Made by a program: the position numbers and the translations under genes. From Candidatus Entotheonellaceae bacterium (GTDB lineage: Bacteria; Tectomicrobia; Entotheonellia; Entotheonellales; Entotheonellaceae): DNA of 64,000 bases. Below, one piece after another: positions 36,049 through 45,712 of the stretch; within the stretch, counting starts at the first letter, position 1; each line of letters opens with the position of its first letter. Below the pieces are notes generated by a model that saw only the letters and a list, made by a program, of their open reading frames with translations, was not told where the DNA came from and made no database searches. The stretch is taken from positions 1,568,001 to 1,632,000 of the forward strand of contig OZ250173.1 in assembly GCA_965238075.1 (NCBI GenBank). The letters run 5' to 3'.

Positions 36049-36130
36049 AGCATTTCCGTGGCCCTCTGCCTGGGCGGAGAAACCGCTACTCCCTCTCCCC
36101 TGGCGGGAGAAGGTTGGGGTGAGGGGGAAG
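36045..36130 (-). mobile_element. Partial MITE copy at the cinA stop codon
   Basis: Begins ctagagcatttccg (terminal IR); contains actccctctcccc..gggagaaggttggggtgagggggaag. Confidence 0.65.
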
Positions 36131-40446: not shown

Positions 40447-40648
40447 TAGAGCATTTCCGCATCGGATTGCAACGAAAGCCATCAGGGACCTAAAGCCCCC
40501 TCTCCCTAGCCCTCCCCCGCGGAGGGGGGAGGGGAACCCAAAGTAACCCGCCAACGCAAAGGGGTTTACTCCCTCTCCCTTGGTGGGAGAGGGTTGGGGT
40601 GAGGGGGAAGCGCCGGCTATCAAGCCATTTTGATCCGGAAGTGCTTTA
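40447..40648 (-). mobile_element. MITE (~200 bp) inserted in a REP palindrome
   Basis: gtcggattacgcttcgc-TA[gagcatttccgcatc...gatccggaagtgctt]TA-atccgacctac; reverse-orientation homolog of 16584-16776. Confidence 0.85.
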
Positions 40649-40667: not shown

Positions 40668-41708
40668 ATGATGGTTCGTGAGCTCGGGGAATTTGCGCTG
40701 CTGGCGCGCTTGCAGCGGCGTCTGAAGCAGGCCGATGCGACGCCGGTCGTGCGCGGCATTGGCGACGACTGCGCGGTGCTGCGCCCCACCGACGGGCACG
40801 ACCTGCTGGTCACGACGGACACCCAGGAAGAGGGCGTGCACTTTCGACGCGACTGGTCAACGCCGGAGGATATCGGCTGGCGCTGTCTGGCGGTTAACGT
40901 CAGCGACATCGCGGCTATGGGTGGTGTGCCGTTGGGGGCGGTTGTCGCACTGTCGCTGCCGGAAACGCTGGCGGTGGCGTTCGTCGAGGCCCTGTACGAC
41001 GGCATGAACGACTTGGCCGAGGCTTACGACTGCCCGATCATCGGCGGCAACATCAGCAAGTCCGCCGAACGGCTGTCGGTGACCATCACCGTGCTTGGCT
41101 CGACACCGCAGGGCACCGCCGCGTTCCGAGCCTCGGCCCGCGCCGGCGATGCCATCTGGGCGACCGGCCACCTCGGCGGCGCCAAGGCCGGGCTGGAAGC
41201 CCTGATCCATCCGCAAGCAGTAGCCGGATTGCCCACTGACGCGGTGCTGTCTCGTTACCGGCGTCCCCTCCCCCGGTTGCAGGAAGCACTGTATCTGTGC
41301 CAGCATGGCGTGCACAGTCTGATCGATCTCAGCGACGGCTTGTCGAGCGACTTGGCGCACATTTGCGAGGCTAGCGGCGTGGGCGCACAACTCTACGCCG
41401 AACGCATCCCGGTCAGCGATGAAACCCGCCGGGTGGCCCGCGCCCTCGGCCTGGACGCCCTCACGATGGCCCTGCACGGCGGCGAGGATTTCGAGTTGTG
41501 CCTGACGGCACCACCCGACGCCGCGGCGCCGTTGGAACAAGGCTTCCGCGGCCAATTCGACTGTTTGCTGACCCGTATCGGCACCATCCAGGCCGGCGCC
41601 GGCGTGACGCTCCGCCACCCGGACGGCAGCCAGGAGTCCCTGGCCGCCGGCGGTTACGATCATTTCCGACCATCCCAACCCGACGCGAGGAATGCAACCC
41701 AGCCATGA
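40668..41708 (+). CDS. thiL: Thiamine-monophosphate kinase
   Basis: GEF.L, GIGDDCAV, EGVHF, VNVSDIAAMGG, IDLSDGL, GGEDFEL, GYDHF. Confidence 0.95.
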   Translation: MMVRELGEFALLARLQRRLKQADATPVVRGIGDDCAVLRPTDGHDLLVTTDTQEEGVHFRRDWSTPEDIGWRCLAVNVSDIAAMGGVPLGAVVALSLPETLAVAFVEALYDGMNDLAEAYDCPIIGGNISKSAERLSVTITVLGSTPQGTAAFRASARAGDAIWATGHLGGAKAGLEALIHPQAVAGLPTDAVLSRYRRPLPRLQEALYLCQHGVHSLIDLSDGLSSDLAHICEASGVGAQLYAERIPVSDETRRVARALGLDALTMALHGGEDFELCLTAPPDAAAPLEQGFRGQFDCLLTRIGTIQAGAGVTLRHPDGSQESLAAGGYDHFRPSQPDARNATQP

Positions 41709-43156
41709 ACGCCCATCACGTACCCCTGGAACGCATCGACAGTCACCGCTGGCGTATCCCGCGTCACGGCGGCATGAACGTGGACGGCCTAGTGTTCGCC
41801 AGCGATGCCATGATGCAAACCATCCGCGGCGACCAGAGCCTGCAGCAGGTGGTCAACGTCGCGCATCTGCCGGGCATCGTCGGGCACTCCATCGCCATGC
41901 CGGACATCCACTGGGGCTACGGGTTTCCCATCGGCGGGGTGGCGGCGTTCGACGTCCGCGACGGCGTCATTTCGCCCGGCGGCATCGGCTACGACATCAA
42001 TTGCGGCGTGCGGCTGCTGGGCTCAGGTCTGAGCCGACAAGACGTGCAGGGCCGCATGCGCGAGGTGGCTGAGGGCCTATTTCGCAACATCCCTTCCGGC
42101 GTTGGGGCGCGCCAGCAGGCGGTGCGTCTGTCGCACGCCGATCTGCAGGGCGTGCTCAAACGCGGTGCCGGCTGGGCGGTGTCGCAGGGCTACGGCACAC
42201 CGCGCGACCTGGAGCACACCGAAGAGAACGGCTGTTTGGCAGAAGCCGAGCCGCAATACGTCAGTCAGCGCGCCCTTGAGCGCGGACGCCCGCAGCTCGG
42301 CAGCATCGGTTCGGGCAACCACTTTGTGGAAGTCGATTACGTCGCCGAGGTCTACGACGAACAGGTGGCCGGCGCCCTGGGATTGTTCAAGGACCAGCTC
42401 GCCATCACCATCCACACCGGCTCGCGCGGACTGGGCTATCAGGTGTGTGACGACTTCATCAAGACCATGCAGCGTACCGCGCAGCAATACGGTATCGCCA
42501 TCCCGGATCGGCAGTTGTGCTGCGCCCCCCTGAAGTCCCCGCCGGCGCGCGAATACATCGGCGCCATGTACAGCGCCGCCAATTTTGCCTTCGCCAACCG
42601 ACAGCTCATCACCCACACGGTGCGCCAGACCTTTGCCGAGGTGCTGCAACGCTCGGCGCCGGACCTGCGGATCGAGGTGATCTACGACGTGTGCCACAAC
42701 ATCGGCAAGTTCGAGACGCACACTGTTAACGGGCAGGCGCGCCGCTTGTGCGTGCACCGCAAAGGCGCCACCCGCGCCTTGGCGCCGGGGCATCCGCAGT
42801 TGCCGGCGGTGTATCGCGATCTGGGCCAGCCAGTGCTCATTCCGGGCGACATGGGCCGATACTCCTACGTGCTGATCGGCACCCAACAGGGCGGCGAGGA
42901 GACGTTTGCCAGCAGTTGCCACGGCGCCGGCCGCCTCATGAGCCGTACGCAGGCGAAGAAAAGAGCGCGCGGACGGCCCATCGTGCAGGAACTGGAGGCC
43001 CAGGGTATTTACGTGCGCTCGGCCGGACGCGCCACCCTGATGGAGGAAATCCCGGAAGCCTACAAGGACGTTCGGGATGTGGTGGACATCGTGCACGGCG
43101 CCGGCATCAGCCGGAAAGTCGTGCAGTTGCGGCCTCTCGGCGTGATCAAGGGCTAG
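41705..43156 (+). CDS. rtcB: RtcB RNA ligase (archaeal/eukaryotic-like long form)
   Basis: MPDIHWGYGFPIGG, PGGIGYDINCG, GSGNHF, HTGSRG, HRKGATRA, PGDMG, SCHGAGR, EE.PEAYKDV; ATGA overlap with thiL. Confidence 0.95.
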   Translation: MNAHHVPLERIDSHRWRIPRHGGMNVDGLVFASDAMMQTIRGDQSLQQVVNVAHLPGIVGHSIAMPDIHWGYGFPIGGVAAFDVRDGVISPGGIGYDINCGVRLLGSGLSRQDVQGRMREVAEGLFRNIPSGVGARQQAVRLSHADLQGVLKRGAGWAVSQGYGTPRDLEHTEENGCLAEAEPQYVSQRALERGRPQLGSIGSGNHFVEVDYVAEVYDEQVAGALGLFKDQLAITIHTGSRGLGYQVCDDFIKTMQRTAQQYGIAIPDRQLCCAPLKSPPAREYIGAMYSAANFAFANRQLITHTVRQTFAEVLQRSAPDLRIEVIYDVCHNIGKFETHTVNGQARRLCVHRKGATRALAPGHPQLPAVYRDLGQPVLIPGDMGRYSYVLIGTQQGGEETFASSCHGAGRLMSRTQAKKRARGRPIVQELEAQGIYVRSAGRATLMEEIPEAYKDVRDVVDIVHGAGISRKVVQLRPLGVIKG

Positions 43157-43341
43157 GGCACTTTCGGATCAAGACGGCTTGCAGCGTGTCTCATTTCGGC
43201 TTTCCCCCTCACCCCAACCCTCTCCCACCAGGGGAGAGGGAGCAAACCCTCTCGACGTCGCCCGGGCAGTTGATCCAGGTATGCGGGCGGTACCTCGGTC
43301 GTCTCGCGGCCGCTCGGAAATCCCCACTTGGTGCCAAAAAG

Positions 43342-43825
43342 CGGCGTTATCAACCCAATCAGCTTGCCGTGGTGGTGCCTGGCAAGCCGCATGGCTTCGG
43401 CAATGTCGCTGTCGTTGCTGACCACAACCGCGCAGTCGTAGACGTCCAGCCAACTGTCGTTCAGGAGATGCACGGCGAGATTGACGTCCGAGCCTTTTTC
43501 CTCGGTCTTGATCACCTGTGCCGCGTGCTGGTTCCCGGCCACGCGAGCGGCATTCGGACCGGATGGCTCAGAAAATACCCGAAATACGCCTCGACCTCGG
43601 GCCGATAGTGGCGTAGCGCGCGAAGATACACGTCTTGCCGTTGAGGCTTCGACTGCTCAGCGGGCGTGCTTGACACTCTCGCCGTGAAGTACTTGACGGT
43701 CAGGATGTCGTGGTGGGGTTGCAGGACTTTCGCGAACAGGGCAGGCAGGTCCAGCCATTCCGGGCGGTTCCCTTGAGCGCTCCGTCGTAGAGATTGAACC
43801 CGTCTACATAGATGAAGGTGCGCAT
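43342..43825 (-). pseudogene. NYN/LabA-DUF88 (PIN-like RNase) pseudogene
   Basis: MRTFIYVDGFNLY / WLDL..VKYFTARV..RQ.VYLRAL / EEKGSDVNLAVHLLND..VVSNDSD over three frames; 3' end lost after IGLITP. Confidence 0.85.
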
Positions 43826-43836
43826 CAATCCCCGCC

Positions 43837-43898
43837 AAAAAAGCAGGGACCTCCGAAAAGAGGCCCCGCGCCCTGCGGTCGAAACCGCAAGGGGTGTT
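43837..43898 (-). ncRNA. Candidate structured leader/small RNA upstream of the NYN gene
   Basis: Sense strand: CCCUUGCGGU-UUCG-ACCGCAGGG, then GCGGGGCCUCU-UUUC-GGAGGUCCCUGC, then U6, 11 nt before the ATG. Confidence 0.5.
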
Positions 43899-44081
43899 GC
43901 CAATAATCTAGACGATGTAAGCGATCAAGGTTAAGTGAGCGTAGCGCACCTTCGATTGGCGCTAAACGGGCCCACCTTGTTTTCATTCTCCAGCCCAGCA
44001 GGCGTCCACGACCATCGAGGGAGGGGCTTTAGGGCCGATATCTCAACCGGTGCAATCGGATACGGGAATGATCCAGGCAGG

Positions 44082-44975
44082 TTACGATGCAGCCACACCG
44101 CTCGCCACCGGCTCGCGCAGACCGGCGAACAGGTCCCATTCGGGGCTGCTGTGGGGTACGTGCGACGCCACGCAGACGAAGCATTCGTGGGCGAATTTGT
44201 CGCGCTGCACCTCGGGCGGGATGCGCCTGAACCACCAATCCGGCGCGATCTGGCTGCGGTGGCAGCGCAGCGCCTCCATCTTGAGCGCGAGATAATCGCG
44301 CACCTCGATACGCGTCGTGATGTCTTCGTCCGCTGTGCCGCCCACCTTCTGCGGGTCGAAATCCGGCCGGTCCATCGGTGACTCGACGCCCATCGAGCGC
44401 ATAACCTCGTAGCGCATCAGGATGTAGGAGCGCGGGTAAGACGTGTAATAGAGCTTCTGCGGCTGCCACGGCGCCAGCCCGTCCTCGGAGTATTGCGCGG
44501 GGTCCCCGGCAGCATGAAAGGCCGCGACGGTCGCGCGGTTGACTTGAATGTGATCCGGGTGGCCGTAGCCGCCGTTTTCGTTGTAGCAGGTCACCACGTG
44601 CGGGCGGCACTGCCGCATCAGGCGCACCAGCCGTCCGGTTGCCTCATGCAGGTCGGCCTGGTGGAAACAGTCGGGGTGGTTGTTGGCCGGCGTTCCGGCC
44701 ATGCCGGAATCGCGGTAATTGAGCAGGTGCGACTCCCCGATCTGCAAGTGTTGGCACGCCTTTTCGAGTTCCGCCACGCGCACGTCGGCGAGTTTCGGCC
44801 GCACCTCGTCGGGGTCCATTTCCGGATCCACGATCTCGCCCTCCTCGCCCCGTGTGGCGGTGACCAGGATGGTGTGTACGCCCTCCTCGCGGTAGCGCGC
44901 CAGGCTGCCGCCGGTACTCATGCATTCGTCGTCCGGATGGGCATGCACCGCCATCAGGGTCAGTCGTTCGGTCAT
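44082..44975 (-). CDS. PIG-L family deacetylase/amidase, MshB/Mca-like
   Basis: VHAHPDDE, T.GEEGEI, YRDSGM, NGGYGHPDHI, ALRCHRSQ. Confidence 0.85.
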   Translation of the reverse strand: MTERLTLMAVHAHPDDECMSTGGSLARYREEGVHTILVTATRGEEGEIVDPEMDPDEVRPKLADVRVAELEKACQHLQIGESHLLNYRDSGMAGTPANNHPDCFHQADLHEATGRLVRLMRQCRPHVVTCYNENGGYGHPDHIQVNRATVAAFHAAGDPAQYSEDGLAPWQPQKLYYTSYPRSYILMRYEVMRSMGVESPMDRPDFDPQKVGGTADEDITTRIEVRDYLALKMEALRCHRSQIAPDWWFRRIPPEVQRDKFAHECFVCVASHVPHSSPEWDLFAGLREPVASGVAAS

Positions 44976-45148: not shown

Positions 45149-45712
45149 ATGGAACACGTTCTCCTGCTCAACGCCTCGTTCGAACCCCTGCGCATTGTGA
45201 ACTGGAAACGCGCGCTGACGCTTTATTTCGCCGGCAAGGCGGAGATCGTCGAGGAGTACGCCCGCGAGATCCACAGCGTTACCCTCACCCTGCGCCTGCC
45301 GGCGGTTATCCGGCTGCACAAGCTGGTGCGCGCCCGGCCGCGCGGCGTCAAGTTTTCCCGCCAGAACATCTACGCCCGCGATCACTACGCCTGCCAGTAC
45401 TGCGGCGCCATGCCGCCGCCGAGCGAGTTGACCTACGACCACGTGCTGCCGCGCGTGCTCGGCGGCCTCACCGAGTGGACGAACATCGTGACCTGCTGTC
45501 TGGCCTGCAACCGCCGCAAGGGCGGCAAGACCCTGCAGAGCTGCGGCCTGCGCCTGAAGCGGCTGCCCCGCAAGCCCGCCTGGCAGCCCCACGTCACCAT
45601 GGCGGCGAGCCTGCGCAATCCGCCTGAGAGCTGGCATGACTACCTGAAGTGGTACGCCGCCTCCGAAAGAGACGCGCCGGCGGCCTCTCAAGCAGTTCTC
45701 GGGGCATCCTGA
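45149..45712 (+). CDS. HNH endonuclease (McrA-like)
   Basis: VLLLNASFEPL, FSRQNIYARD..CQYCG, TYDHVLPR..GG..W.N.V.CC..CN..KG. Confidence 0.9.
   Translation: MEHVLLLNASFEPLRIVNWKRALTLYFAGKAEIVEEYAREIHSVTLTLRLPAVIRLHKLVRARPRGVKFSRQNIYARDHYACQYCGAMPPPSELTYDHVLPRVLGGLTEWTNIVTCCLACNRRKGGKTLQSCGLRLKRLPRKPAWQPHVTMAASLRNPPESWHDYLKWYAASERDAPAASQAVLGAS

Follow-up and report, generated by a model that had tools for sequence, protein, structure and literature searches.

Type III toxin-antitoxin systems comprise three ToxN-related families, and their loci are defined by a repeat-terminator-toxin layout, as set out in the accessible text of PMC12283969. A short hairpin non-coding RNA also neutralises a toxic nuclease in the AbiF/RCd22 system of C. 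difficile, where the available portion of the report describes direct binding, in cis and in trans alike (10.1101/2025.04.15.648962). The accessible part of PMC3475682 describes how phage PhiTE escapes ToxIN through a pseudo-ToxI antitoxin RNA, a route that needs repeat expansion. As far as the available text of 10.1101/2024.01.29.577857 goes, the sole member tested of the HEC-09 protein family gave E. coli no protection against any phage tried.

Here we describe a conserved two-hairpin RNA associated with the HEC-09 family, starting from a single copy in a window of 64,000 nucleotides (the whole stretch of DNA analysed) from a Candidatus Entotheonellaceae bacterium. From comparative sequence evidence we give a probability of roughly 0.7 to the reading that it belongs to a type III-like toxin-antitoxin family with an NYN RNase as toxin and a non-pseudoknot RNA as antitoxin, countered by phage decoys. 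The features of the window locus are as follows.

43934-43929, minus strand: -35 box TTAACC, decayed in the window, with an 18-nt spacer to the -10 box
43910-43905, minus strand: -10 box TAGATT, read from the sequence
43897-43837, minus strand: RNA element (two hairpins and U-tract), a single copy of the conserved RNA of ~60 nt
43893..43897, minus strand: 5' single-stranded tail with a conserved A (43897) and an unpaired C (43893), from alignment A4
43892-43871, minus strand: P1 hairpin of 9 pairs with a UUCG loop, 9/9 pairs with two-sided changes
43869-43843, minus strand: P2 hairpin, built from two G-C pairs, U 43845 as a bulge, a purine-rich/pyrimidine-rich stem and a distal loop that varies
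43842-43837, minus strand: U6 tract, predicted intrinsic terminator, read from the sequence
43825, minus strand: ATG of the NYN gene, 11 nt past the last U of the U6 tract
43342..43825, minus strand: pseudogene of the PADLOC HEC-09 family (NYN domain), frameshifted twice and truncated at its 3' end

A first-pass annotation of this DNA had listed the -10 box TAGATT, the UUCG-capped hairpin, a second hairpin, the U6 tract and an ATG 11 nt further on, and all of these are present on the minus strand. Its account of the second hairpin stands and is completed here by two G-C pairs that extend P2 below a one-base bulge; its promoter likewise gains the -35 box, which it had omitted. Transcription is predicted to start at or just before the 5' tail (43893..43897). 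P2 doubles as the hairpin of the predicted intrinsic terminator, and the 62-nt RNA folded alone gives P1 and P2. The element owes its significance to conservation; its folding score (z = -2.33 for the 106-nt region) and the terminator call (P2 and the U-tract being one of 2 terminator-like sites in the region vs 1.0 expected, which alone is not significant) are by themselves modest. Covariance model R1, built without the window, recognises the window copy with 67.8 bits (E 3e-21). It finds no other match in the 3.35-Mb genome, and BLAST likewise returned no second genomic copy, which rules out the generic genomic repeat that the first-pass annotation had raised as an objection. The locus holds a single RNA unit with no tandem repeats.

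The same annotation had called the local gene dead, and so it is. Compared with intact same-genus copies, the pseudogene carries a 1-nt deletion at ~43759 and a 4-nt deletion at ~43538, and homology ends after 43342, with about 45 C-terminal codons gone. Contigs of other sequencing runs span the damage with 0 gaps (43218-43887 in X3 record 9; 43216-44300 in X6 record 20), so the damage is real, and an assembly error behind the frameshifts could be discarded. Small private changes are present in the window promoter and RNA: the -35 box is TTAACC vs TTGACC in three same-genus copies, and P2 differs from its relatives at one pair, where G-C has become G-U, and by 2 nt inserted in the loop. These are consistent with an RNA and promoter that started to decay after the toxin gene died. 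Upstream of the -35 box, similarity to two intact relatives falls off. Read depth was rejected as an indicator of expression: greater depth over the motif also appeared in a run of unrecorded kind and came partly from other organisms' copies, the runs used were contigs only, and the RNA runs appear to include DNA.

The neighbours of the NYN relic in the window are a PIG-L deacetylase gene and rtcB, neither of them a defence gene. The RtcB RNA ligase gene (41705-43156, plus strand) converges on the relic, and an HNH endonuclease gene (45149-45712, plus strand) lies 1.3 kb upstream of it; both are probably incidental neighbours, judging from two intact same-genus copies that have other upstream flanks. 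Just beyond the truncation lies a palindromic repeat (43202-43245) that is very abundant in sponge-community contigs, with similar stretches, judged from ORF translations, near 36060-36120 and 40570-40620.

Intact homologs have 207 aa and share up to 89% identity with the middle piece of the pseudogene. All three intact homologs searched (3/3) matched PADLOC HEC-09 (PDLC04163) over their full length, with E-values from 1.4e-41 to 6.1e-47, and the family is large: 3,037 clusters at 50% identity match at E<=1e-10, and 454 plasmid records carry homologs. Five acidic residues (D8, E111, D115, D140, D142) are invariant in 60/60 sequences, and the family has many conserved Lys/Arg. An AlphaFold model (pLDDT 97.4) adopts the NYN fold and shares fold and acidic active site with the NYN domain of MARF1 (Z 17.0, rmsd 2.6, 147 aligned) and with VPA0982 (Z 16.5), the next best fold reaching Z 9.1 (structures 5yaa, 6fdl and 2qip). 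The fold suggests that the protein is an RNase. Compared with MARF1 NYN and VPA0982, the model has two extra elements: a long beta-hairpin spanning residues 84-112 and a conserved C-terminal tail that ends in K203-P204-x-x-W207, both of which are candidate RNA-binding parts. Other resources were less specific: NCBIfam matched 0/3 proteins, a sequence search of the PDB gave only 2qip (E 0.026), and the ESM Atlas gave only generic NYN cluster names.

PADLOC matches (E<=1e-20) occur in 12/120 neighbouring ORFs, at 10/44 loci, a count taken without a background rate, and include HmaA/B, GajA, a CBASS-type effector and methyltransferases; 34/44 loci have none. Genes matching HmaA or HmaB adjoin 4/44 loci (L060, L071, L077 and L079) and are absent from the window. 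The accessible text of 10.1101/2024.01.29.577857 concerns this same protein family and describes the protein only, the terms 'ncRNA' and 'non-coding' occurring 0 times in its main text. The RNA partner of the HEC-09 family is an addition of the present analysis. As separate observations, one 766-aa protein (P0057, from a cluster of 70 members) fuses the NYN domain with PF13749 and PF21247, and in two loci (L265:1492-2463 and L272:1474-2430) the NYN protein has a C-terminal extension while both retain the hairpin-terminator leader. The extension is annotated as an Xre/MbcA/ParS antitoxin domain in L265 and as nicB in L272, and these fusions of NYN to an Xre/MbcA/ParS-type domain were counted against the type III-like reading.

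The upstream regions of homologs were compared in 240 NYN loci, the best 80 from each of three collections. Across many phyla they follow one plan: a promoter, a short pyrimidine-rich tail, P1, one linker base, P2 and a U-tract. Covariation was analysed in a plain MAFFT alignment of 50 sequences, which excluded the window and from which R1 was built. Two-sided changes were found in 18/19 pairs, with 182 such cells vs 55 after shuffling, and true partners paired in 91% of cases vs 40-56% for slid partners, bearing out a conserved structure upstream of homologs, the lack of which the first-pass annotation had named as a refutation. The training sequences were chosen by a pairing-based script, which inflates percent paired by construction. 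Outside training, 100 matches from 99/100 loci were 92.7% paired, these having been preselected as prior R1 hits and fitted to the model. The lower helix of P2 was 100% paired in the 50-sequence alignment and 99.6% in the matches outside training.

The junction is where conserved letters concentrate, the UUCG loop among them: an A five bases 5' of P1 (88/100), the unpaired C directly 5' of P1 (99/99) and the C-G pair beneath the P2 bulge (100/100). P1 is nearly fixed in length (about 20-23 nt) and variable in sequence, while the tip of P2 varies freely. The top APC-corrected mutual-information pairs are the nested helices, and none joins a loop to a distal strand as a pseudoknot would; nor does covariation in the RNA alignment point to an antiterminator, and no guide-like variable segment was seen outside the hairpin stems. 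Sigma70-like promoters scoring >=9 of 12 precede 105/170 RNA copies vs 8/166 control windows. The Rfam comparison proposed at the outset returned no family matching the RNA: Rfam 15 gave 0 gathering hits in the window (best local E 7), and there was no match on the motif in 20 and 11 further loci. R1 misses a CGUG-loop variant and most of the distant subfamilies, which were judged by eye.

The association of RNA and nuclease gene is close. After 9 duplicates and 28 loci with <150 nt on a side had been dropped from the 240, the RNA was found at >=20 bits in 160/169 non-duplicate loci (>=40% identity, >=150 nt in both flanks), a count that includes the training loci and is inflated by construction. 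The remaining 9/169 comprise 5 weak scores and 4 loci without a match, three of which carry the CGUG-loop variant (by eye) and one of which, L203, is a broken gene. Among 156 intact genes, 148 have the RNA, 5 score weakly and 3 carry the CGUG-loop variant (by eye), such that no intact gene without any such RNA was found among close homologs. The RNA is also kept beside 12/13 broken genes, a persistence that its small size would also lead one to expect. Below 40% identity, 1/34 loci matches R1 at >=20 bits, and many have a different two-hairpin leader (by eye).

Three gene arrangements occur. The RNA lies upstream on the same strand in 153 of the 160 loci, at a median of 12 nt from the start codon; it is downstream and convergent in 5, and divergent, upstream of the gene and pointing away, in 2 (L120, L253). 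Together with L012 and L254, which fall outside the 160, the downstream-convergent copies are L093, L113, L116, L230 and L235. In these opposite-strand copies tail, P1, bulge and promoter-like boxes are preserved, and no copy runs more than 2 nt into the coding sequence. Because they keep both the motif and promoter-like boxes of their own, the RNA is a separate gene and not only a leader: a cis leader or attenuator cannot work from a downstream or divergent position, and no single RNA could pair antisense with the mRNA in every one of the three arrangements. Recognition by the protein is most likely the requirement common to them all. In a quick tree of 126 rows (70 upstream-same loci sampled at random; broken and duplicate loci excluded), the opposite-strand loci are nested among ordinary loci; the nesting is weakly supported and cannot count independent relocations, and a single origin of the downstream arrangement may be compatible with it.

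More distant homologs show other layouts. Two distant NYN homologs, on a Thermus plasmid (L011:2280-2400) and in L135, have upstream a different two-hairpin element with a TTGACA box on the opposite strand, which was seen by eye and has no R1 match. In L134:3732-3880 and L137:2869-3020 promoter-like boxes, a single hairpin and a U-tract follow distant NYN homologs downstream on the same strand, the upstream RNA being replaced by the downstream hairpin. A Thiothrix plasmid (L270:900-2157) carries a variant two-hairpin RNA ahead of an operon of two genes, an HTH gene and the NYN gene whose start it overlaps.

Most loci hold a single unit and no array, and some hold more. In L095 a single promoter is followed by two units, of which the first lacks a U-tract; an E. 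coli plasmid locus (L009) also has two. Four hairpin units (L266, L276) or five (L274, L275) are followed by a terminator and then the gene. A 4.6-kb E. coli/Salmonella plasmid carries four CGUG-type units, a terminator and the gene, with five units in 2/3 fetched variants. Two Paracoccaceae MAGs (L032:2300-3030 and L041:2080-3030) contain three tandem copies of promoter, RNA and 5' gene stub; in the extra copies the RNA is kept while the gene stubs decay.

A search that started from the RNA and ignored the protein, consisting of five pattern scans of viral contigs, gave 134 loci. By hand tally, R1 scored >=30 bits on 46 distinct viral contigs, with an intact NYN gene within 900 nt in 10/46 and none in 36/46; the 36 include near-duplicates and two probable relics beside 5' gene stubs (L291, L384). 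The family profile matched 0/23 of the whole records searched among the 36, while the positive control (G031) did match, and in 8 CheckV-complete phage or provirus records (three with terminal repeats) both the family profile and PF01936 were absent. Solo copies follow a head scaffolding gene, separate terminase from head-tail adaptor genes, or lie near tail or terminase genes, some of them inside late operons; one (L304) has promoter-like boxes of its own. The 5' tail and P1 are retained in them. A 62-nt copy is identical in two phages whose flanks are unrelated, and another phage copy has a single-base difference over about 55 nt from an NYN-linked RNA. In two further cases (the L349:666-964 region and L370:431-809) the solo RNA stands directly before tRNA-Lys(TTT) and tRNA-Arg(TCT), with a second RNA copy nearby, possibly a hint at tRNA targets.

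Measured against ToxIN, CptIN and TenpIN, as these are described in the available text of PMC12283969, the present loci have the same order of promoter, short RNA unit or units, intrinsic terminator and RNase gene, with variable-number tandem arrays in some members and with plasmid and prophage carriage. They differ in that the toxin is of NYN/PIN fold (Pfam NYN) and not ToxN-like, the RNA consists of two stacked hairpins with no H-type pseudoknot signal, there is usually one unit, which includes the terminator stem, and the RNA gene can be downstream-convergent or divergent. With AbiF/RCd22, on the account given in the accessible part of 10.1101/2025.04.15.648962, they share a short hairpin ncRNA upstream of a nuclease gene, but AbiF is an Abi_2/AbiD/F protein linked to Cas13, in contrast to the Pfam NYN protein here. 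We propose that the system would work like ToxIN or AbiF/RCd22 but belong to neither, because of its different toxin fold, the missing pseudoknot signal and the absence of an Rfam match. The phage copies have their counterpart in PhiTE, an antitoxin RNA in a phage that lacks the toxin gene (PMC3475682, in its accessible part), and look like the same strategy; the difference is that the present RNA is found in near-perfect form across many phage records unrelated to one another, and some of these hold a non-coding cassette with several copies or two subtypes. The initial annotation knew of no characterised pairing of this kind, and our literature search, with most subscription papers outside its reach, returned, among the matches listed, no NYN protein paired with an RNA antitoxin; surveys of ncRNA-associated toxins beyond that literature may list the motif.

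Under the toxin-antitoxin reading, a small RNA gene running from promoter to terminator would be paired with an NYN-fold nuclease gene. Most transcripts would end at the terminator, leaving the RNA in excess over the nuclease mRNA; such an excess over toxin mRNA is established for type III loci. Acting as an antitoxin, the RNA would bind the predicted RNase and inhibit it, the protein recognising three features: the 5' tail, P1 with its fixed length, and the base bulged out of P2. Once infection had depleted the RNA, the nuclease would be free to cut RNA of the cell or the phage, an outcome that phages would forestall by expressing decoy copies. In the window genome the toxin gene has died, and the RNA and promoter would be in decay. 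Between the RNA antitoxin and the autoregulatory substrate that the first-pass annotation had left side by side, the opposite-strand copies, the arrays and the solo phage copies favour the antitoxin, a support that is comparative only. We also lean towards a wider statement: that these are widespread type III-like anti-phage systems, in which an NYN/PIN-fold RNase is joined to a two-hairpin, pseudoknot-free RNA able to work from any position relative to the gene, and which many unrelated phages would meet with decoys, some of them in multi-subtype cassettes.

Several other explanations deserve consideration. The RNA might serve an NYN ribonucleoprotein, itself non-toxic when free, as an obligatory subunit, as a sensor or as a cofactor that selects substrates, the phage copies acting as competitive inhibitors or as processing signals via a host nuclease. 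All the arguments for trans action fit this, the fixed length of P1 and the invariant junction suggest a structural ribonucleoprotein, and phage copies in late operons or before tRNA genes would suit a processing signal; but the stoichiometry implied by a terminator before the gene and the variable-number arrays match antitoxins, a guide-like segment is absent and close homologs yielded no RNA-less intact gene, and we regard this alternative as unlikely. Somewhat less probable still is a purely cis-acting autoregulatory leader, in which binding or cleavage of the 5' hairpins by the encoded nuclease would limit its own expression, the solo phage copies being borrowed terminators. The predominance of upstream same-strand copies (153/160) a median of 12 nt from the start codon and the quality of P2 as a terminator speak for it, as does RCd22 of AbiF, which acts in cis and in trans according to the available text of 10.1101/2025.04.15.648962. 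Opposed to it are the downstream-convergent and divergent copies, with full motif and promoter-like boxes, the lack of covariation support for an antiterminator, and the retention in phages of a 5' tail and P1 that a terminator does not need. Given the dual cis and trans action of RCd22, some cis contribution is likely under the toxin-antitoxin reading too.

There is little to recommend the idea of a small mobile or selfish element that rides along with the NYN gene, reaches phages too and is functionally unconnected to the activity of the protein. Within the genus the module does turn up at unrelated genomic sites, L032 and L041 have tandem duplications of promoter, RNA and gene stub, and identical copies stand in unrelated phage flanks; however, genomes of the window's genus have a single copy each, compensatory change runs deep across phyla, and the RNA is strictly paired with one nuclease family whose fold relatives are RNases. 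That the protein is a metabolic enzyme (HspA/NicB, 6-hydroxy-3-succinoylpyridine hydroxylase) with a riboswitch-like RNA is scarcely credible: plasmid matches bear HspA/NicB annotations and hydroxylase activity is reported for a LabA homolog in the accessible text of PMC5499597, but that text names a different domain as the possible source of the activity, the modelled protein consists of a bare NYN fold carrying an acidic nuclease site, and plasmid, prophage and defence contexts with switching orientation ill suit a riboswitch.

If the toxin-antitoxin reading is true, RNA-antitoxin systems would gain a new toxin fold and a new RNA architecture, and the large uncharacterised NYN group (3,037 clusters) would gain a function. 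The lack of defence in the protein-centred test of HEC-09 could also be explained in this way. The proposal is testable, as E. coli plasmids of 3.5-4.6 kb carry intact members, including natural 4- vs 5-repeat variants; examples are the 4.6-kb plasmid locus of CP057929.1 and the 3.5-kb plasmid NZ_CP091696.1.

The phage cassettes offer a further lead. Two phages (G035, L413:2880-3820; G037, L414:2930-3720) have non-coding cassettes of several short hairpin-plus-terminator units, in which one P2-like terminator recurs behind different 5' parts, some with promoter-like boxes; L414 has canonical and CGUG subtypes within 150 nt. Several of these units match no family tested and may mimic the antitoxins of other systems, in which case the cassettes would lead to further RNA-controlled defences and may list the antitoxins of further systems. 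Elsewhere, at L287:2-931, a solo RNA lies just after a gene resembling a DarG-type macrodomain (by eye; phrog_335 match), possibly as a relic in a defence island.
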